64,000 nt of DNA, taken from positions 9,510 to 73,509 of the forward strand of contig JABACC010000006.1 of assembly GCA_014237915.1 (NCBI GenBank), given 5' to 3'. A model generated the notes under the pieces. It did no database searches, was not told where the DNA came from, and saw nothing but the letters and a program-made list of their open reading frames with translations. Within the stretch, counting starts at the first letter, position 1. Each line of letters begins with the position of its first letter. This DNA is from Candidatus Paceibacter sp. GTDB lineage: Bacteria; Patescibacteriota; Minisyncoccia; Phycocordibacterales; GCA-2747955. Shown one piece after another: positions 28,113-63,860 of this stretch. The position numbers and the translations under genes were made by a program.

Positions 28113-28635
28113 TAAAAAAAATATAATGTTCTTTTAGCGGGCCCCGCAAGGGCCCGCCAAAACACTCACACCTGTGAGTGTTTTTTATTAATTTTTTATT
28201 TTATAAAATTTTTTTTGGCGGATTTACCGAAGGCAAATCCGCCAAAAAATTTTAATAACAAGTTATCAAATTTTTTTATAAAAAAATATTGACTTTGTCT
28301 TCTAAATAAATATAATGGCTTCCACTTGTTTTTTTTATTTTTTTTATTTTGTAGTTTAAAAAATAAAAAGCAGGTTTGAACTTTGAAAATTAAATAGTCT
28401 TTTCAATCTCTAGAAAAATTTTTTAAATTTTTTTAGGGAAACAAAAGCAGGTAAAATTAAATTTTTACTGAACGAATACAAACTCAAACAAACAAACAAA
28501 CTCGTGTTTTTAAGATTTTTTTTAGAAAAAAATCTAGGTTTTTAAAACTCATAAAAACCGACCCAGAAAATTACTTTTTAAATTTTTTTAAAATTTAAAA
28601 AGTAAAAATTATATCTTTGAAATTTTCTAATGAAA

Positions 28636-31945
<3,310 letters not shown>

Positions 31946-32054
31946 TTTTCATTAGGAAATTTTAAGGATATAATTTTGTATTTTATTTTACAGAAAGTTA
32001 ATTCCTGTTTTTGAAAAGACTATTTAATTTTTAAGGTTATTAAAAATATTTTAT

Positions 32055-32160
32055 TCTGGTGCTTTGTCGGAGGGGTAACACCTGTTTCCATTCCGAACAC
32101 AGAAGTTAAGACCTCTAGAGCCGATGGTACTGCCTTGCGGGAGAGTAGGCAGGCGCCGGA
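32055..32160 (+). rRNA. rrf: 5S ribosomal RNA
   Basis: ccattccgaacacagaagttaag...gccgatggtactg...gagagtaggcaggcgcc. The ends pair with each other. Confidence 0.85.
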
Positions 32161-32273
32161 ATAAAGTATTTTTTTTTGTTTAAAATTTTTTTTTAAAAAA
32201 TTTTAAAACAAATTTTTAAAAAAATTTGTTTTTCTTTTTTAAAAATATATAATATAAAAATATTTAAAATTTT

Positions 32274-32948
32274 ATGAAAATATTTTTCTTAACATTATTT
32301 ATTTTATTTCTAGGTTTTCTAGGTTTTTCAAGTTTATCTTTTTCTAATAATTCAGGTTGGGATGTTTCTTGGATTTCTTCGGGGTCATCTTTTTCTTCAA
32401 GTAAATTAATTTCTAATTTAAACCATTTAAATAATACAAAAGTAAAAACACCTCCAAAATGTGAGGGAGCCTTAACTTGGAACGGAAGTAATTGGGGATG
32501 CATAAATTCTACACTAGTTGCAAGAGCTCCAATTCCAGCAGATGATTCTAATTCTCCAAATCCAGATTCTGGATCAGAAACGACACATAAAGAAACACAC
32601 AGAAAGACTACTTACAAAACTTCTTCTTCTGGAAAAAGAAAAAACTCAGACACCGTAGGAGAGAAGTCCGACCTTGCTAGCTGTAGCTCAGGAACTTTAA
32701 TTTCTTGTGATAGTGTTTCGGTATCGAATGCAAAAGAAAAAAATAATCCAGAGTTTTCAATTTATAAATCAGGAAATAGCTGTTATGGAAAAATAGTTTC
32801 AGCTTCAGAATCTGACGATGCGTGTACACCAGGACATATTTGTTATATGAGCCTTTCTATGACTTGTTCAGGAGAGCCTGAAAATAATTTTGATAAAAAT
32901 ATAGACCTTTTAGAATCGAATATTAATTCTAACGGGCAATTACGTTAA
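32274..32948 (+). CDS. secreted protein, family member 1 (signal peptide + 'SSKLISNLNHL...C.GALTWNGSNWGC' module + Cys/Ser-rich region)
   Basis: Signal peptide. Shares the motif S(S/A)KLxxNLNxL...K...P..C...L.W.GS.W.C with 33121..34236 and 41828..42073. Confidence 0.55.
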   Translation: MKIFFLTLFILFLGFLGFSSLSFSNNSGWDVSWISSGSSFSSSKLISNLNHLNNTKVKTPPKCEGALTWNGSNWGCINSTLVARAPIPADDSNSPNPDSGSETTHKETHRKTTYKTSSSGKRKNSDTVGEKSDLASCSSGTLISCDSVSVSNAKEKNNPEFSIYKSGNSCYGKIVSASESDDACTPGHICYMSLSMTCSGEPENNFDKNIDLLESNINSNGQLR

Positions 32949-33120
32949 TTTTAAAAATTAATTTTAAAAACTATGTTTTTCTTAAACATAGTTTTTTATT
33001 TTTAAATAAAAATAATTTAAAAAAAATTTAATTATTTTAATAAATAAAAAAATATTTAATTTTAAAATTTTGTTTTTTTATTTTTATTGTATATAATTTA
33101 AATATTAATTATATTTACAA

Positions 33121-34236
33121 ATGAAAAAATTTATCATATTTTTTATAATAATTTTTAGTTTTTCAGGAAGTGCTTTTTCTGCTTTAAATACTTCTTCATT
33201 TAGTAAAGGTAAAACAATAGAATCTTCAAGCTTAAAATCAGCCTTAAATAGTATAGATTCTGACAAAGTTAATAAACCAGGAAATTGTAATGGAGCTTTA
33301 GGATGGAGCGGTTCAAACTGGCTTTGTAATTGTGTAATTGGAGATATTAGTGACGGGAAAATTGTAAAAGATGGAGAATCTTTTGATTTTTATGAAAGGG
33401 CTTCTAGTAACACATGCGGCACAGAAAAAAGAACTTGTAATAATGGTGTTCTTTCTGGAAGAGCTACTCATGAAACTTGTCAGCTAACAAATTCTGTTGA
33501 TCCTGTTTGTGGAACTTCTTTAAATTCTTGTGAGGTAGGTAAATTTAAAAATGAAACTAACTATAAGTATGCACAGTCATGGTCGTGTGTAGAAGAAGAT
33601 CAGGAAATACAATGTGATGGTTATTTTGATGCTGGAGTTATGCGTTCAGATTTATATTGGGGATGTTCAGGATCAAAAGTTACTTGTAAAAATTCAGACG
33701 GAGATGAAATGGGTGATTGGAGTTGCAACAACGCAGATCATTTAGGTAAAAAACCAGCAACTTGTCCAACAGGAAATACCAACATCAACACCAACACCAA
33801 CAATAACAATGTCTCAGATCCAGCTCCAGTTGAACCTACAGCTACACCAGTGAATGGAAAATGTGGAAGTTCTGTAAACTCTTGTTCATTTGGAGATTTT
33901 AAAAATGTAACCGATTGGAATTATACGGAAGTCTGGAAATGTGCTGGAGAAAATGGAGGATCATCAGCTACGTGTAACGGGTGGGATCACGCAAAAAACA
34001 TGCGATCAGATTTGTATTGGAGTATTGGAAATTGGGGAACTTGCTCAAGTTCTAAACAAACAAGAAATGTTATTTGTAAAAATTCAAGCGGAAATACTTT
34101 AGGAGATTGGAGTTGTAGTAAAGCAAGCCATTTAGGAAGTAAGCCGGCAGAAGAAAAAGCTTGTGTTATTAATAATAATTCAGGAGGCGGAGGAGGAAAT
34201 AAAGATATTAATAATCAAAATTTTAATCTTCATTAA
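33121..34236 (+). CDS. secreted protein, family member 2, with two internal ~100-aa Cys-rich repeats and an N/T-rich linker
   Basis: 'SSSLKSALNSIDSDKVNKPGNCNGALGWSGSNWLC'. Internal repeats '...CGTSLNSCEVGKFKNETNYKY...MRSDLYWGCSGSKVTCKNSDGDEMGDWSCNNADHLGKKPATC' and '...CGSSVNSCSFGDFKNVTDWNY...MRSDLYWSIGNWGTC...ICKNSSGNTLGDWSCSKASHLGSKPAEEKAC'. Confidence 0.55.
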   Translation: MKKFIIFFIIIFSFSGSAFSALNTSSFSKGKTIESSSLKSALNSIDSDKVNKPGNCNGALGWSGSNWLCNCVIGDISDGKIVKDGESFDFYERASSNTCGTEKRTCNNGVLSGRATHETCQLTNSVDPVCGTSLNSCEVGKFKNETNYKYAQSWSCVEEDQEIQCDGYFDAGVMRSDLYWGCSGSKVTCKNSDGDEMGDWSCNNADHLGKKPATCPTGNTNINTNTNNNNVSDPAPVEPTATPVNGKCGSSVNSCSFGDFKNVTDWNYTEVWKCAGENGGSSATCNGWDHAKNMRSDLYWSIGNWGTCSSSKQTRNVICKNSSGNTLGDWSCSKASHLGSKPAEEKACVINNNSGGGGGNKDINNQNFNLH

Positions 34237-41827: not shown

Positions 41828-42073
41828 TTGCTTTTAAAAAATTTAATATATAATATATTTATGAAAAAATTTTTAATAATATTGTTTTTTGTTTTTGGTT
41901 TTGCTGGAATTTCTTTTGCAGCCTTAGATCTTTCTTGGATTGCAAACGGAAAAACAATTTCTTCTGCAAAATTAAAACAAAATTTAAACTACCTCTACGA
42001 CACAAAAGCTGATATTCCGCCGAGCTGTTCTAAAAAATTAGGATGGAGCGGAAGCAGCTGGACTTGTAAATAA
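41828..42073 (+). CDS. secreted protein, family member 3 (N-terminal module only, 81 aa)
   Basis: 'GKTISSAKLKQNLNYLYDTKADIPPSCSKKLGWSGSSWTCK*'. Same motif as 32274 and 33121. Ends right after the module. Confidence 0.5.
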   Translation: MLLKNLIYNIFMKKFLIILFFVFGFAGISFAALDLSWIANGKTISSAKLKQNLNYLYDTKADIPPSCSKKLGWSGSSWTCK

Positions 42074-42243: not shown

Positions 42244-42942
42244 ATGTATAAAAATAATATTGATTTAGTTAATGAGCCTTTATCACAAATTTCAGATTCT
42301 TTTATGATTTTGTGGGAAAGTATTGCAAACTATATTCCTACAATTTTTGTAGCAGTTATTGTTTTCATTATTGGGCTTATTGTAGCTGACGTTTTGTCAA
42401 AATTTATAGAAGAAATTTTAAGAAAAATAAAACTTGATGTTTTTCTAGAAAAAATTAATTTAAAAAGTTTTTTAGAAAAAACAGGGTACAGACTTAATTC
42501 TCCAGTTTTTTTCGGAAGGCTTGTAAAATGGTTTACGATTATTGTGTTTCTATTAGCGGTTTTAGACGTTTTAAATTTAGCAGAAATTAAAGTTTTTGTG
42601 TATGGAATAGGTTTTTATCTATTAAAAATTATAGTTGCTTTAATTATCTTAGTTATCGCAGCTTACATTGCAAGATTTGTAAAAAATATTTTATCAGCTC
42701 TTGCAAAAGCTTCAGATGTGAAAAATCACAAACTTATCGGGGATGCAGGAAAATGGATTGTTTATTTTTTAACTCTTGTTACAGTATTAAATCTGTTTGC
42801 TATCTTCGATATAATTCTAGGTTATCTTTCTATAATCATTACTGGAATTGTATTTGCTCTAGCCTTAGCTTTCGGATTATCTTTTGGTATGGGAGGTAAA
42901 GATTACGCAAGAAAAAAGATTGAAGAAAAGCTAGATAAATAA
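42244..42942 (+). CDS. membrane protein with repeated TM-helix units (MscS-like N-terminal 'conserved TM helix' repeats?)
   Basis: 232 aa, 5 to 6 TM. Weak resemblance only. Confidence 0.3.
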   Translation: MYKNNIDLVNEPLSQISDSFMILWESIANYIPTIFVAVIVFIIGLIVADVLSKFIEEILRKIKLDVFLEKINLKSFLEKTGYRLNSPVFFGRLVKWFTIIVFLLAVLDVLNLAEIKVFVYGIGFYLLKIIVALIILVIAAYIARFVKNILSALAKASDVKNHKLIGDAGKWIVYFLTLVTVLNLFAIFDIILGYLSIIITGIVFALALAFGLSFGMGGKDYARKKIEEKLDK

Positions 42943-47402: not shown

Positions 47403-47951
47403 ATGGAAAGAGTTAGAGAAAAAGAAAAAAAAGCATTTGAAAAATTAAAAGAAGTTTTTTCTTACAAAAACAAAATGCAATCTCCAAAAATAGAAAAAAT
47501 TGTTGTTTCTGTGGGGGTGGGAAAAATAAGAGCTGAAAAAGAAAAAATGCAAATAATCGAAGATAGGCTTGCAAAAATCACAGGTCAAAAACCAGCTGTT
47601 GTTCCTGCTAAAAAATCAGTTGCTACTTTTAAAGTAAGAGAAGGCGACACCTCAGGATATAAAGTTACTTTAAGAGGCCCAAATATGTATGCTTTTTTAG
47701 ATAAATTTTTAGTAGCTTCTCTCCCAAGAACAAAAGATTTTAGAGGAATAAATACAAGCGCTGTTGACGAAATGGGAAATTTAACAATCGGAATTCCAGA
47801 ACACATAATTTTTCCAGAAACCACAGACGAAGAGCTTAGAAATGTTTTCGGACTTTCCGTTTGCATAGTTTCATCTGCAAAAAATAAAAAAGAGGCACAT
47901 GAATTTTTTAAATTTATTGGAATTCCATTTAAAAAAGAAAAAAAAGATTAA
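47403..47951 (+). CDS. rplE: 50S ribosomal protein L5
   Basis: '[12 protein letters not shown]...[24 protein letters not shown]...[18 protein letters not shown]'. Confidence 0.9.
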
Positions 47952-47971
47952 AATTTTATTTAATAAAAAAT

Positions 47972-48184
47972 ATGAAAAAAGAAATTCACCCAAAATTTAA
48001 TAAAAACACAAAAACAATTTGCTCTTGCGGAGAAGTTTATGAAGTTGGATCCACTTTAGAAAACGAAGTTAAAATAGAAGTTTGCCCTGCTTGCCACCCT
48101 TTTTATACTGGAAATAATAAAGTTTTAGATACAGCTGGAAGAGTAGATAAATTTAAAAAAAGAGTTCAAGCTTCAAAAAAATAA
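47972..48184 (+). CDS. rpmE: 50S ribosomal protein L31, sitting where S14 normally follows L5
   Basis: 'MKKEIHPKF...[48 protein letters not shown]' matches L31 (MKKDIHPKY...CSCGN...CSKCHPFFTGKQ...GGRVDRFNKRF). Followed by the terminator 48214..48240. Confidence 0.8.
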
Positions 48185-59454: not shown

Positions 59455-60036
59455 ATGCCTGAAGTTATAAATTCATCTTTTATACCAAAAAAAGACCTTG
59501 GGGGAGGATCCCAAAAAAAAAGAAAAGGAGGAGGAATTGACATCTTTCTTCTAATTGCTTTGATTATTTTTTTATCATCAATTGTTCTTTCGTTAGGAGT
59601 TTTTTTGTGGTCACAATCTGTTCAAAATAAAAATGAGGAGCTTTTTATTCAAATAGAAAGCTATAGAGATAATTTTGCCATTTCTTCTATCATAGAGTTA
59701 ATAAGTGTTAGTAACAAAGTGGAGGCAGCAAAAGAAATTTTAGATAATCACTACTCTGTTTTACCAGCTTTTTCCTATCTTGAAGAAAATACGTTGTCTG
59801 ATATTTATTTAAACGATATGGTTGTATCAGAAAAAGGAAATAAAATTGAAGTTAGTGCCACAGGAATTGCTCCAGATTTTGATTACGTTGCTTACGCTTC
59901 AAAAGTTTATGCAAGAGACGACAGAATAGATGATTTAATTTTGGAAAATTTTTCTAGAAATAATTTAAATGAAGTAGTTTTTAATTTATCTTTTTCTATG
60001 GACAAAAGTTTTCTGTATAATCTAAGTAATAATTAA
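59455..60036 (+). CDS. type IV pilus assembly membrane protein, PilN-like (bitopic)
   Basis: Short cytoplasmic N-terminus, one TM, periplasmic domain. Placed in the pilus cluster. Confidence 0.4.
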   Translation: MPEVINSSFIPKKDLGGGSQKKRKGGGIDIFLLIALIIFLSSIVLSLGVFLWSQSVQNKNEELFIQIESYRDNFAISSIIELISVSNKVEAAKEILDNHYSVLPAFSYLEENTLSDIYLNDMVVSEKGNKIEVSATGIAPDFDYVAYASKVYARDDRIDDLILENFSRNNLNEVVFNLSFSMDKSFLYNLSNN

Positions 60037-60038
60037 TT

Positions 60039-60602
60039 ATGAATTTTATCTTTCCAATAATTTTAATAATAATTTCTGGAGGGCTTTTTTACATACAAAT
60101 TGATCCCACTTATAAACAAATAAAAGAAGACTCTCAACAGGCAGAAGAATACAATTCTATAATTTCAAAAACTACAGAAATTAGAAAAATAAGAGAGGAA
60201 CAAAGATCAAAATTAAATAGTATAACTTCTTCAGACAGGACAAAACTAGAAAAAATTCTTCCAGACCATATAGATAATATTCAGCTTATTTTAGACATTC
60301 AACAAATTGCTTACAAATATTCGATGCCCAGCATAAGCGATGTTTCAATTGTAGAAAACAATAATTCTGAAAACGGAAAGGGAATTGTTGCTGAAGGCGA
60401 TGAGCTTTATGACTCTGTCGGATTTTCTTTTTCTGTCATCTCAAACTACTCTGCTTTTAAAAATTTTATAAAAGATTTAGATAAATCCCTTCGAATAATG
60501 GATATACAATCAATTTCTTTTTCAAAATTAAATTTAGGTCAAGGAGAGAGTTTGGATGTTTACAAGTTTAACGTTGAAGTAAGAACTTATTGGTCTAAGT
60601 AA
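60039..60602 (+). CDS. type IV pilus assembly membrane protein, PilO-like
   Basis: N-terminal TM, coiled-coil region. Synteny with pilB/pilT. Confidence 0.4.
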   Translation: MNFIFPIILIIISGGLFYIQIDPTYKQIKEDSQQAEEYNSIISKTTEIRKIREEQRSKLNSITSSDRTKLEKILPDHIDNIQLILDIQQIAYKYSMPSISDVSIVENNNSENGKGIVAEGDELYDSVGFSFSVISNYSAFKNFIKDLDKSLRIMDIQSISFSKLNLGQGESLDVYKFNVEVRTYWSK

Positions 60603-60612
60603 TTTATTAAAT

Positions 60613-61044
60613 ATGAAAGATTTATTAAAAAATAAAAAAATAAAAAATTTTGCAGCAATTGCCGTTGTTATTTTAATCATAGCTTTTGTGGTAAATTTTT
60701 TTACAGACTCAGACGAAGAAGAGCTACTTAAAGCTGAAAATAAAATTGATGATTCTCTTGAATCTGGAATCGAAATTTTAGAAACTTTAAATCAGCTTAA
60801 AGTTGTAGACATAGACTCAAATTTTTTTTCAAGATCAGATTTTTCTGATTTAGATGATTTTTCTTACTCAATTGAAGAAAAAAATGTTGGAAAAAATAAT
60901 CCATTTTTAGAGTCTTCAAAAAATTTTATTCCTGAAGATGAAGATATAAAAAATATTGAGGATGAAGATGCATTATCTGAAAATCAAGAAATAAATTCAA
61001 ATCAACAGACAAATCCTGGTTTTGGAATTTTTAATCTTGAATAA
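60613..61044 (+). CDS. acidic bitopic membrane protein in the pilus cluster (PilP-like?)
   Basis: One TM, then a highly acidic region. Confidence 0.3.
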   Translation: MKDLLKNKKIKNFAAIAVVILIIAFVVNFFTDSDEEELLKAENKIDDSLESGIEILETLNQLKVVDIDSNFFSRSDFSDLDDFSYSIEEKNVGKNNPFLESSKNFIPEDEDIKNIEDEDALSENQEINSNQQTNPGFGIFNLE

Positions 61045-61049
61045 TTTTT

Positions 61050-62753
61050 ATGGCAATTTTAGATGAGTTTATAAAAAGTAATTTAATAGATAGATCAATA
61101 GTTTTTGATATTGAAAAAGAAATTTCCGAAGGAAAAATTTTAGACAGTGTCTTGGAGGAAGATTATAATATTGAAAAAGAAAAAATATTTGAGGTAAAAA
61201 AAAGTTACTATAAATTTCCAATAAAAGAATACAAAAATACAGATTTAATTGAAAATGAAATTTTAGATTATATCCCAAAAACTTCAGTTGAGCATTATAA
61301 AATTGCCCCTCTAGGAATTTCAGCAGACGGATATTTAGAAGTGGGAATGTTGGATCCCGATAATCCAACCACTCGTTCAGTTTTACAATTTATTTCTTCA
61401 AATGCTGGAATGCCCTATAGAATTTTTCTAATTTCTTTAGATCATTATAACTTTGTGTTAAGTCATTATTCAGGTTTGAAAGGAGAAGTTTCAGAAGCTT
61501 TAGGGGAATACGGAGATGAAGTTGAAACAATAAAAGAAGAAGAAGGAAAAGGTTTTGACCAAAACGACATAATAAGAGAAGATGCTCCAATTGCAAAAAT
61601 TGTAAAAAATATTTTAAAATATGCTACCGATTCAGGAGCTTCAGATGTTCATATAGAGCCAAAAGATAGAGATGTTGGGATAAGGTACAGAGTTGACGGT
61701 ATCTTAGAAGAAGGAATTGTTTTACCAAAAAATGTTCAGCTTTCAGTTATTGCTCGTATAAAAATTCTTTCAAACATGAAATTAGATGAGAGAAGAAGGC
61801 CACAAGATGGAAGATTTTCTGTAAATGTTTCGGGAAAAAAAATTGATTTTCGTGTTTCAACCTTTCCAACTTATTATGGAGAAAAAGTTGTGATGCGTCT
61901 CTTAAAGCAAGACATAGAGGCTATTCAAATAGAAGATTTAGGTTTTTCTGACGATAATTTGTCAAAAATAAAAAGAATTATAAAAAAACATTATGGAATA
62001 ATAGTTGTTTGTGGACCAACAGGTTCTGGAAAAACAAGTACGTTGTATTCACTTTTAAATGAAATTGATAAAGAAAAAAGAAATGTTGTTTCTTTGGAAA
62101 ATCCAATAGAGCTTAATGTTAAAGGTGTTTCTCAATCTCAAATAAGAGAAGACATCGGCTATACTTTCTCTTCCGGTCTAAGAACAATTTTAAGACAAGA
62201 TCCAGATATTATAATGGTTGGAGAGGTGCGTGATTCTGAAACTGCAAAACTTGCCATTCAGGCAGCACTAACAGGTCACCTTGTTTTGTCTACCATTCAC
62301 ACCAATACAGCAGCAGATGTTCCACAAAGATTAATCGATATGGGAGTCGAGCCATACTTAATTGGACCAACTCTACTAGCTTCAATCGGGCAAAGACTTG
62401 TGAGAAAAATTTGTGCTGGATCTGAAAATGAAATTCCTATGCCAAAAAATGTAAGAGAAAAAATAGACAAAACCCTAGAAGGTTTACCGGAAGAGTTTAA
62501 AAAAGATTTTATTCAAAAAACCATAACAGAGGCTTTGCCAACAGATACTTGTCCAACAGGGATGCGAGGAAGAACAGCTGTTTTTGAAATTTTAGAAACA
62601 ACAAAAGAAATTAGAAGAAAAATTTTAAAAGATCCTTCGTCGCTATCTATTTTTACAGAAGCCAGAAACCAAGGGTTTATAACTTTCAAGGAGGATGCTA
62701 TAAAAAAAGCTCTTGAGGGAAAAATAACAATAGAAGAAGCAATGTCTTTATAA
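61050..62753 (+). CDS. pilB: Type IV pilus assembly ATPase PilB (GspE family)
   Basis: Walker A 'GPTGSGKTST', 'IIMVGEVRD', His box, tetracysteine 'C..G....CPTG'. Confidence 0.85.
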   Translation: MAILDEFIKSNLIDRSIVFDIEKEISEGKILDSVLEEDYNIEKEKIFEVKKSYYKFPIKEYKNTDLIENEILDYIPKTSVEHYKIAPLGISADGYLEVGMLDPDNPTTRSVLQFISSNAGMPYRIFLISLDHYNFVLSHYSGLKGEVSEALGEYGDEVETIKEEEGKGFDQNDIIREDAPIAKIVKNILKYATDSGASDVHIEPKDRDVGIRYRVDGILEEGIVLPKNVQLSVIARIKILSNMKLDERRRPQDGRFSVNVSGKKIDFRVSTFPTYYGEKVVMRLLKQDIEAIQIEDLGFSDDNLSKIKRIIKKHYGIIVVCGPTGSGKTSTLYSLLNEIDKEKRNVVSLENPIELNVKGVSQSQIREDIGYTFSSGLRTILRQDPDIIMVGEVRDSETAKLAIQAALTGHLVLSTIHTNTAADVPQRLIDMGVEPYLIGPTLLASIGQRLVRKICAGSENEIPMPKNVREKIDKTLEGLPEEFKKDFIQKTITEALPTDTCPTGMRGRTAVFEILETTKEIRRKILKDPSSLSIFTEARNQGFITFKEDAIKKALEGKITIEEAMSL

Positions 62754-62786
62754 AATTTTCTAAAAAATGTTAAAATGTAAATAATT

Positions 62787-63860
62787 ATGGAAGATTCTAA
62801 AAAAAATATTAAAAAAATATTAAGTGATATTATAGAAATTGCTAGAAAAGAAAATGCCTCTGATGTTCACTTATCAGAAGGAAGAAATCCGATGCTTAGA
62901 ATAAACGGGGTTTTGGTGCCCATCACTTCTTTTCCAGAAATTAACAAAAAAGACATGGAAGAGTTTATTTTTCAACTACTTTCTCCAGATTCAAGATCTG
63001 AATTTATGAGTAAAAAGGAAATTGATTTTTCAAAAGAAATTTCTGGAGTTAGGCTTCGAGGAAACTGCTTTTTTCAACAAGGTTTTGTTAGTGTGGTTTT
63101 GAGACTTGTGCAAGAAAAAATAAAAAATCTTGAGGAGCTTAAATTACCAGAAATTTTAGAGGTTTTTGCAAGAAAAAAACAAGGTTTTTTTCTTGTTGTT
63201 GGTCCAACAGGACACGGAAAATCAACAACACTAGCTTCTATTTTAAATATTATAAATGAAAACAGAAACGCTCATATTTTAACAATCGAAGATCCAATAG
63301 AATTTGTTCATAAACAAAAAAAATCCATTATAGATCAAAGAGAAATAAAAATTGATACTAAAGATTTTCCAACAGCATTAAGGTCTATGTTTAGGCAAGA
63401 CATCGATGTTGTAATGCTTGGAGAAATGAGAGGACTTGAAACTATAAAAACAGCAGTAACAGCAGCAGAAACTGGACATCTTGTTTTATCAACCCTCCAC
63501 ACAAACTCAGCTTCGCAAACAATAGATAGAATTATCGACTCATTTCCAGCTGAACAACAAAAACAAATTAGAAATCAATTATCTGGATCTTTGATAGGAA
63601 TTTTTTCTCAAAGACTTATTAAATCAGTTTCAGGTGGAAGAATTCCTGCTTACGAACTTTTGATAAATAATTCTGCTGTTTCAAATTTAATAAGAGAGGG
63701 AAGAATTGCCGAAATTGATTCTTTTATTGAAACTTCTTATGAACAAGGAATGATAAGTTTTAATAGATCGTTAGCGGAACTTGTTAGAAAAGGGGAAATT
63801 ACCGTTGAAGATGCTTATGTTTATTCTCCAAAAACAAAATCATTAGAAAGAATGCTTTAA
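62787..63860 (+). CDS. pilT: Twitching-motility retraction ATPase PilT
   Basis: Walker A 'GPTGHGKSTT', 'VVMLGEMRG', 'HLVLSTLHT'. Confidence 0.85.
   Translation: MEDSKKNIKKILSDIIEIARKENASDVHLSEGRNPMLRINGVLVPITSFPEINKKDMEEFIFQLLSPDSRSEFMSKKEIDFSKEISGVRLRGNCFFQQGFVSVVLRLVQEKIKNLEELKLPEILEVFARKKQGFFLVVGPTGHGKSTTLASILNIINENRNAHILTIEDPIEFVHKQKKSIIDQREIKIDTKDFPTALRSMFRQDIDVVMLGEMRGLETIKTAVTAAETGHLVLSTLHTNSASQTIDRIIDSFPAEQQKQIRNQLSGSLIGIFSQRLIKSVSGGRIPAYELLINNSAVSNLIREGRIAEIDSFIETSYEQGMISFNRSLAELVRKGEITVEDAYVYSPKTKSLERML

Follow-up and report, generated by a model that had tools for sequence, protein, structure and literature searches.

What does a short domain contribute to a protein when it is shared at the N-terminus by several probably exported proteins that otherwise vary? 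The question is raised by a 64,000-nucleotide stretch of the genome of Candidatus Paceibacter sp. (assembly GCA_014237915.1, contig JABACC010000006.1; hereafter the window), in which two adjacent genes just downstream of a 5S rRNA gene, and a third and much smaller gene further on, encode proteins that begin with a signal peptide and the same module. The genes are called m1, m2 and m3 here. It is very probable that they belong to an exported, modular family headed by a new domain. The reading favoured below goes further, and is given a probability of roughly one half: the proteins would be modular surface or extracellular proteins whose constant module docks or assembles, and whose variable Cys-rich parts bind ligands. 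The role of the module itself, docking or assembly, is put forward a little more tentatively still.

The three genes form a real paralogous family, with a degree of sharing far beyond chance. All lie on the forward strand, as do all their parts described below. The first, m1 (32274..32948, 224 aa), is also a gene call in the public assembly and starts 113 nt downstream of the 5S rRNA gene (32055..32161, forward strand; Rfam RF00001, 70.4 bits); m2 (33121..34236) encodes 371 aa with 22 Cys and is identical to protein P0002; m3 (41861..42073; P0001) encodes 70 aa, consisting of signal peptide and module only. An initial reading made from the letters alone (the sequence-only reading) had placed two adjacent genes for secreted-type proteins behind the 5S gene, exactly where the open reading frames (ORFs) of m1 and m2 are found. 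It had put m3 at 41828..42073, of which the end and the reading frame stand; the start does not, as TTG 41828 is a mechanical choice and ATG 41861, the start chosen by public gene callers, is the likely one. Its shared module of about 40 aa is borne out as to the sharing (pairwise BLASTP E-values are 5e-9 for m1/m2, 4e-14 for m3/m2 and 3e-10 for m3/m1), but the length has to be raised to about 50 aa. The proteins can be aligned from the first residue through the end of this module, where 15 columns are invariant in all three. The count of three copies is also right: a six-frame scan of the window with a hidden Markov model (HMM) of the module returned m1, m2 and m3 only (E 1e-29 to 1e-31; the next best match has 0.08), and no further copy occurs in the window or in the 10 kb of the same contig past its end. 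At the DNA level, a stringent degenerate pattern written for the module picks out two of the three genes in the window, m1 and m3, where chance alone should give 0 matches.

The module occupies aa 27–80 of m1 (32352..32513; HMM E 4e-30, with alignments in agreement), aa 20–72 of m2 (33178..33336; E 9e-29) and aa 20–70 of m3 (41918..42070; E 2e-31), the last being the sequence that was modelled. What follows it is different in each protein, so that the modular build proposed earlier is evident in a constant module joined to unlike C-terminal parts. In m1 a linker rich in Ser, Thr and Pro leads to a C-terminal region with six of the protein's 8 Cys, and Ser makes up 19.6% of the residues, in keeping with the Ser/Cys-rich continuation first described. 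In m3 nothing follows, the protein ending one residue past the last Cys of the module, again as had been stated. A single difference between public copies of m1 may be recorded here: residue 160 (32751–32753) is Glu in the window and in the NCBI copy P0044 and Lys in the ENA copy P0003, the two copies coming from two public assemblies of one sample.

Three motifs make up the module: a Trp-rich lead, an amphipathic helix of the form S-x-x-L-K-x-N-L-D-Y-L, and a hairpin of the form L-x-W-x-G-S-x-W-x-C. Over 21 modules of different proteins, K30, C37, W48 and C50 are invariant and G11, L26, P34, L41 and W43 nearly so (numbering of the m3 module). The structure prediction that had been suggested for the module gave a confident AlphaFold2 model for m3 (21-sequence alignment, mean pLDDT 89.8), with an irregular lead (residues 1–15), a helix (16–30) and a beta-hairpin (41–43/48–50). 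C37 lies four residues ahead of the hairpin and C50 at its end; their invariance and position suggest a disulfide that staples the hairpin. The full-length model of m2 opens with the same helix-plus-hairpin topology and is poor beyond the first ~100 residues (pLDDT 48). Because the m3 model is confident, the topology recurs in m2, and module-only proteins are found in two unrelated genomes, the module is apparently an autonomously folding domain.

The sequence-only reading did not recognise the module, and it corresponds to no known domain in the collections searched. Neither Pfam nor NCBIfam gives a match, with E-values of up to 10 admitted; PHROGs give none (for the full proteins m1–m3, none at E up to 0.1), and the module profile has no real match among PDB sequences. 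Profile searches of the PDB with the module, and with a 49-aa repeat that occurs in relatives (see below), returned spurious matches only (CdnE, titin, polyubiquitin). The model's only Foldseek match in the PDB is the mini-fibritin 1ox3, which is not significant (E 9, probability 0.04), and predicted viral structures gave no match to the fold (best E 2.4). The relatives in other genomes likewise have no Pfam or NCBIfam assignment, and literature searches on DUF5907 and on Cys-rich surface proteins of Patescibacteria yielded nothing relevant.

The N-termini indicate where the module would be found in the mature proteins. Read by eye, they are MKK-FIIFFIIIFSFSGSAFS|A in m2, MKK-FLIILFFVFGFAGISFA|A in m3 and MK-IFFLTLFILFLGFLGFSSLSFS|N in m1, the bar marking the presumed cleavage site. 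Each has a short n-region (MK or MKK), a hydrophobic run of 12–16 residues and a c-region of small residues (...SAFS|A, ...ISFA|A, ...SFS|N). The signal peptide of m1 (MKIFFLTLFILFLGFLGFSSLSFS, 32274..32345) was delimited by inspection of these three regions, and that of m2 comprises aa 1–20. With such classic N-termini, m1–m3 and their relatives are likely to be Sec-type (type I) exported proteins, as had been claimed. Since the module is directly preceded by the signal peptide, the mature protein would begin with it. The number of Cys is even in 19 of 20 family proteins (binomial estimate, p about 2e-5); the exception, P0029, has no start Met and looks N-terminally incomplete. Because the counts are even across the family, the proteins are most likely disulfide-bonded and extracytoplasmic. 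Two other kinds of exported protein were considered and rejected. None of the 20 members has a Cys within its first 25 residues, so that the lipobox Cys of a lipoprotein is missing, and the G|F-T-L-I-E motif of a type IV pilin or pseudopilin is absent, as is any match to the Pfam family PF07963.

The mature part of m3 has 50 aa and presumably one disulfide, and m3 might be a secreted bacteriocin-like or signalling peptide, functionally unrelated to its larger paralogues. Its size and signal peptide would fit, and there is a weak match to the NCBIfam model BLB8/JUQZ-1 (NF053514; E 0.15). The score of that match, 12.3 bits, is however far under the cut-off of 40, for which reason the bacteriocin identity was rejected; moreover, the same domain heads large multi-domain proteins, and no immunity or transporter genes are adjacent to m3. 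This explanation is considered very unlikely.

The module family is rare, and it is not confined to the window. Word-indexed searches of 5.8 billion proteins, with the module alignment, full-length m2 or the 21-sequence alignment, returned only the queries themselves. When the module profile was run exhaustively against 1.84 billion cluster representatives, 42 proteins matched with an E-value of 1e-3 or better; the three queries apart, 17 of them have the module in full (E 3e-12 to 3e-4). The possibility raised at the outset, that the module is conserved nowhere beyond the three copies, is thus answered by 17 further clusters. At the DNA level the degenerate pattern mentioned above was found on only two contigs of the JGI metagenome collection. 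In the relatives the module nearly always begins 2–6 residues after the signal peptide, and the C-terminal parts again differ. P0006, of 86 aa and present on two contigs from different assemblies, is a second module-only protein; P0011 carries three tandem modules in one chain; and in P0040 the helix and hairpin of the module are split by about 90 residues. The remaining hits of the profile search are long repeat proteins that match the hairpin half only, many times over. Two of the 42, P0010 and P0023, consist of identical short repeats (such as VAIPPYCSGQLG and PPPRVNPPLGWSGFMWLP) and look like translated repetitive DNA rather than members.

The carriers of the module are deeply divergent. 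The gene of one relative, P0033 (GCA_054041905.1), has surroundings that are syntenic with part of the window (NifS-like gene...S41 peptidase-rplI), and the orthologues in the two regions are only 34–47% identical. The genomes of members range from 28 to 42% GC (the window has 29%), and one of them reads TGA as Trp. To call the family lineage-specific, as was done initially, is thus too narrow a description for proteins carried by deeply divergent uncultured genomes. The recoded case is P0011 (L031:184-1404), on a contig of 2,088 nt with 27.9% GC. Its gene contains 18 in-frame TGA codons, translated as Trp by the source, and about half of these fall on module columns where Trp is conserved elsewhere (W7, W43, W48), from which it follows that this genome uses TGA for Trp (a code 4-like arrangement) and not for Gly. 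In-frame TGAs occur in the following gene of the contig as well, and the carrier could be either a bacterium or a phage with such a recoded genome.

Such a carrier brings up the idea that the proteins are phage-derived, either remnants of tail fibres or receptor-binding proteins, or prophage cargo. The hairpin motif adds to it. A profile comparison (hhalign) of the module with tail-fibre-type hairpin repeats aligned 12 columns (L-x-W-x-G-x-x-W) with a probability of 66% and an E-value of 5.6e-5, and several of the long proteins matching the hairpin half themselves match PHROG tail-fibre families or DUF5907/DUF6087. The likeness is at the level of a motif, and homology between the hairpin and the phage repeat unit is possible. 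In addition, the insertion that splits the module of P0040 holds an ATKGYVD-type motif, typical of tail fibres. The surroundings of the genes argue the other way: no phage genes flank the copies, m1 and m2 have the rRNA genes on one side and dnaG-rpoD on the other, m3 is flanked by rplI and a membrane protein gene, and another clade keeps its copies inside a dnaJ-grpE-dnaK locus. The full module is also absent from IMG/VR, from 50,697 phage genomes and from PHROGs. On the strength of the housekeeping surroundings and of this absence from viral collections a prophage remnant was rejected, and a phage origin in general appears highly improbable.

Beyond the module, m2 is a stack of small Cys-rich domains. 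Directly behind the module, and missed in the first description, is a 4-Cys domain (aa 71–120, 33331..33480) of the type CxFnG...RxCxxGxLsG...C, which matches proteins of the other clade, called A and B below (phmmer E 1e-9 to 2e-12). A repeat HMM matches it with E 2.9e-15, m2's own unit being among the 27 sequences from which that HMM was built. The segment is predicted to be all-beta (block-mean pLDDT 62–86) and reads as a diverged copy of the 49-aa 4-Cys repeat of the A and B proteins. There follow the two internal Cys-rich repeats recognised from the beginning (aa 123–217, 33487..33771, and aa 243–349, 33847..34167; 48% identity, E 2e-28), separated by a linker (aa 218–242, 33772..33846) that had been termed N/T-rich and is, by its sequence, rich in N, T and P. 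The first part of the second repeat (CGSSxNSC...WxCxGxxGG...C) occurs in P0011 as well, with 49% identity over 43 aa (E 5e-13). Its later part, aa 300–349 (34018–34167), gives a sub-threshold match to the Pfam family PF19030, TSP1_ADAMTS (19.6 bits against a cut-off of 23.8, E 1.2e-3), which spans profile positions 1–51 of 55. W-S-I-G-N-W and C-S are present in this stretch, T-C-G-x-G is absent, and there are four Cys rather than six; a shortened version is found in the first internal repeat. Neither m1 nor m3 matches PF19030 or PF00090, and the stretch in m2 has no PDB homologue by sequence. If real, the match would make this an unusual bacterial TSP1-like repeat. The protein ends with a Gly-rich stretch and a short tail (...GGGGGNKDINNQNFNLH, 34168..34233). 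Comparison by eye shows a weak, qualitative likeness to most B-type tails, and a Gly-rich stretch with a short tail occurs in m2 and in five of six B-type proteins. For the C-terminal region of m1, similarity to any other family member was not detected.

The A and B proteins come from nine loci, found in several metagenomes and one NCBI assembly, with the gene order dnaJ, A, B, C, a PF05552 gene on the opposite strand, and grpE ... dnaK (L004:8873-13133, and L005, L006, L022, L023, L024, L026, L027 and L028; in L025 the locus is cut at its end). Their GC content is 37–41% where measured. All three of A, B and C are unannotated and exported; A and B carry the module, and C does not. A consists of the module and 2–3 copies of the 49-aa 4-Cys repeat (C-x-F-N-G...R-x-C-x-x-G-x-L-S-G...C), and B of the module, 3–5 such repeats, a further domain and the Gly-rich tail. 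Since the repeat at aa 71–120 and the Gly-rich tail of m2 match features of A and B, the tandem m1–m2 pair resembles the A–B pair; a C-type gene was looked for in the window and none was found. Nothing in the libraries searched matched the N-terminal domain, this 49-aa repeat or the A-B(-C) locus. C-type sequence also occurs next to P0040 (L030:2159-2743), in a 652-aa protein encoded just upstream (L030:154-2112), residues 279–445 of which are homologous to the N-terminal domain of C (E 5e-6, 8e-6). C-type domains thus adjoin module genes in two genomic contexts, which gives modest hints of a functional coupling. Downstream of P0040 there is an apolipoprotein N-acyltransferase-like gene, with weak matches to the Pfam families LNT_N and CN_hydrolase.

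A second recurring neighbour is a membrane protein of the PF05552 type (conserved transmembrane helix, MscS-like N-terminal part, after its Pfam label). Its gene directly follows m3 in the window (42244..42942, forward strand), and the product is 27% identical (E 6e-20) to the neighbour of the A-B-C cluster in L004. In the other clade it is present in L004, L022, L023, L024 and L027 and absent in L026. The recurrence is again a modest hint: the membrane protein may be a functional partner, or its position may be coincidence.

With these pieces in hand, the favoured reading can be stated more fully. The constant module would supply what all members have in common, most likely a means of docking at the cell surface or of assembling there, whether module-bearing chains associate with their own kind or with one another, or all bind one partner in the envelope. 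Ligands would be bound, as in adhesins, by the variable Cys-rich domains, and m3, being module only, may take a place in such an assembly as adaptor, cap or filler subunit. Docking or assembly is preferred because the module always stands at the mature N-terminus, occurs alone (m3, P0006), in tandem paralogues and in three tandem copies (P0011), and includes a fibre-like hairpin. The tandem paralogues m1–m2 and those of the dnaJ-A-B-C clade, together with the triple module of P0011, hint at multimeric use; the repeat common with the other clade, the internal duplication in m2 and the sub-threshold TSP1_ADAMTS match hint at adhesin-like binding. The position of the genes in the core genome, with putative expression signals of their own (see below), also counts in favour.

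Several observations weigh against this reading. The monomer was modelled with confidence on its own, so that the predicted fold seems to need no oligomerisation. The likeness to tail fibres extends over just 12 columns at a probability of 66%, and the hairpin motif is found also in unrelated DUF2510, DUF5907 and DUF6087 hits and may be convergent. A comparison with the T4 fibritin foldon was not significant (hhalign E 0.44). The signal peptides were called by inspection only. Lastly, many bacterial adhesins bind their ligands with an N-terminus that points away from the cell; were this so here, the proposed roles would be reversed.

Such an inversion is the main rival explanation: the module would be a ligand-binding head, lectin-like, resembling a carbohydrate-binding module (CBM) or binding a partner cell, and the C-termini would be stalks or anchors; the Gly-rich stretch and N-x-N-L-F-type tail of m2 and of the B-type proteins could, for example, hold the protein on the cell. 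Very small carbohydrate-binding domains typically combine conserved aromatic residues with a disulfide, and the module has both, in W7, Y25, W43 and W48 and in its probable disulfide. It is moreover the only part conserved family-wide, the Gly-rich stretch and short tail do recur in m2 and the B-type proteins as described, and the module-only proteins m3 and P0006 could be soluble binders. This is offset by the lack of likeness to any lectin or CBM family in Pfam, NCBIfam or the PDB, by the C-termini of m1 and the A-type proteins, which lack both conservation and any recognisable anchor, and by the stacked, variable Cys-rich repeats, which look like binders rather than anchors. Inverted roles are therefore regarded as unlikely, though they rank above every other alternative.

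Closer to docking in its logic, and rated slightly lower than inverted roles, is a specific version in which the module is a non-covalent anchor to the wall or envelope, after the manner of the SLH domain: a three-fold unit, formed by three chains or by three copies in tandem, would attach to a polymer of the wall or to a membrane partner, for instance the neighbouring PF05552 protein. The module has about 55 aa, stands behind a signal peptide and occurs in one or three tandem copies (P0011); exactly three paralogues are found in about 74 kb; and a PF05552 protein adjoins both m3 and, in five loci, the A-B-C cluster. The threes do not hold throughout, as the locus of the other clade shows only two module genes, and the PF05552 neighbour is missing at L026. 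Membership of the SLH family proper was rejected, m1–m3 having no match to the Pfam model PF00395 at E up to 10.

The boldest elaboration of docking, which we think improbable, joins these threads into a three-fold assembly or anchoring unit related to the tail-fibre hairpin repeats, that is, a trimeric head with Cys-rich adhesive arms, forming part of an attachment organelle with which ultra-small bacteria might hold partner cells. Three modules would come together in trans (m1, m2 and m3, or A, B and another chain) or in cis (P0011), allowing a combinatorial, fibre-like display that may couple to the C-type and PF05552 neighbours.

The consequences depend on which reading holds. Ultra-small, low-GC uncultured bacteria rely on their cell surface, and most of their exported proteins are unannotated. 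If the module is a docking or assembly handle, it would flag a set of surface proteins whose binding domains can be exchanged, and which would be natural candidates for attachment between cells; otherwise, what is left is an ordinary new family of hypothetical exported proteins. Exported, modular, Cys-rich surface families are already familiar from uncultured bacteria, and the existence of one more would not surprise a specialist. New here is a compact, uncatalogued domain with an alignment, a confident model, about 20 sequence clusters, conservation across lineages, two recurring neighbourhoods and clear boundaries, which make it open to searches, expression and tests of the assembly idea.

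The genes lie in a housekeeping neighbourhood, in the order 23S-5S-m1-m2-dnaG-rpoD-atpBEF, then ...-S41 peptidase-rplI-m3 and the PF05552 membrane protein gene, and look like separate transcription units. A terminator-like hairpin with a U-run follows m1 (32966..33003, forward strand), with a 13-bp stem, a folding energy (dG) of -11.6 kcal/mol and a z-score of -4.0; none of 200 shuffled sequences folds as well. TATAAT boxes occur 8–27 nt before the ATG of m1, m2 and m3, within 32240–32273, 33095–33120 and 41845–41860, respectively, the closest being that of m3, 8 nt upstream of ATG 41861. No obvious Shine-Dalgarno sequence precedes any of the three genes. This arrangement suggests very short or absent leaders; the upstream DNA is AT-rich and the boxes may be due to chance. 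A scan with a promoter consensus found 13 promoter-like sites, with 10.7 expected, and is uninformative in DNA of this composition.

Other features of the window concern the rRNA genes and the translation and envelope machinery. The match to the 23S rRNA gene (28632–31952) exceeds the length of the Rfam model by about 400 nt. The extra sequence lies in the region 31300–31710, and BLASTN against E. coli rrlH places an insertion of about 360 nt between E. coli positions ~2593 and ~2646, a known hotspot for introns of large subunit (LSU) rRNA. The insertion matches no Rfam intron family at threshold and has no long ORF. No 16S gene accompanies the 23S and 5S genes within the window, which suggests that the rRNA genes are unlinked. 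A ribosomal protein operon (S19...L24, L5) is followed by L31, an unannotated ORF of 101 aa and thymidylate kinase (47403–48184; L001:15543-16324); the continuation with S14, S8, L6, L18 and S5 is missing after L5, and the operon appears broken. A PBP-type transpeptidase (Pfam Transpeptidase and PBP_dimer) is also encoded. Within 59455–63860 there are adjacent genes for T2SSE-family ATPases, PilB-like (61050–62753) and PilT-like (62787–63860), preceded by three unannotated small genes, and the pair suggests a type IV pilus-like cluster. Past the window's end (L033:11117-15798), the ATPase genes are followed by an unannotated gene of 506 aa and an ACR_tran (RND-type) transporter. The GC content of 29%, the lack of a 16S gene beside 23S and 5S, the 23S insertion, the two ATPases and the transpeptidase agree with an ultra-small bacterium of candidate-phyla type, such as the putative episymbiont of the sequence-only reading, in which the family might serve host or partner interaction; none of these features is diagnostic. 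A scan of a collection of genome contigs with the DnaG sequence returned only distant primases of Bacteroidales and Firmicutes, so that this collection holds neither the organism nor a close relative.

Set against known systems, the family shows partial likenesses of several kinds. The second half of the module aligns with the hairpin repeats of tail-fibre-type proteins (PHROG 9729/677/9627, DUF5907/DUF6087), which are also found in large bacterial surface proteins. Those proteins have many tandem units, no Cys, no Trp-rich lead or helix, and no proximity to a signal peptide, whereas m1–m3 have one unit each and match neither the Pfam (E up to 10) nor the PHROG (E up to 0.1) models concerned. 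The T4 fibritin foldon is alike in having a helix followed by Pro and a G-x-W hairpin; it differs in being C-terminal and without Cys, and neither the Foldseek match nor the hhalign comparison (E 0.44) is significant. The SLH domain is comparable by analogy only, through its length of about 55 aa, its position after a signal peptide and its single or triple tandem copies; it is helical and without disulfides, and has no sequence match to m1–m3. The ADAMTS-type TSP1 domain (PF19030) resembles the repeats of m2, not the module, by way of W-S-I-G-N-W-G-T-C-S...Q-T-R-x-V-x-C...D-W-S-C...K-P...C over profile positions 1–51, with m2 remaining below the cut-off and lacking the C-G-x-G segment and one Cys pair. 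The A and B proteins (P0009, P0017, P0020, P0022, P0035, P0037, P0039 and others) differ from m1 and m2 in having 2–5 copies of the repeat, other C-terminal domains, a partner gene C, and another genomic position and GC content. They have the same module (E about 1e-12 to 1e-4, library-wide), they too are tandem paralogues, and m2 shares with them both the 49-aa repeat and the Gly-rich tail.

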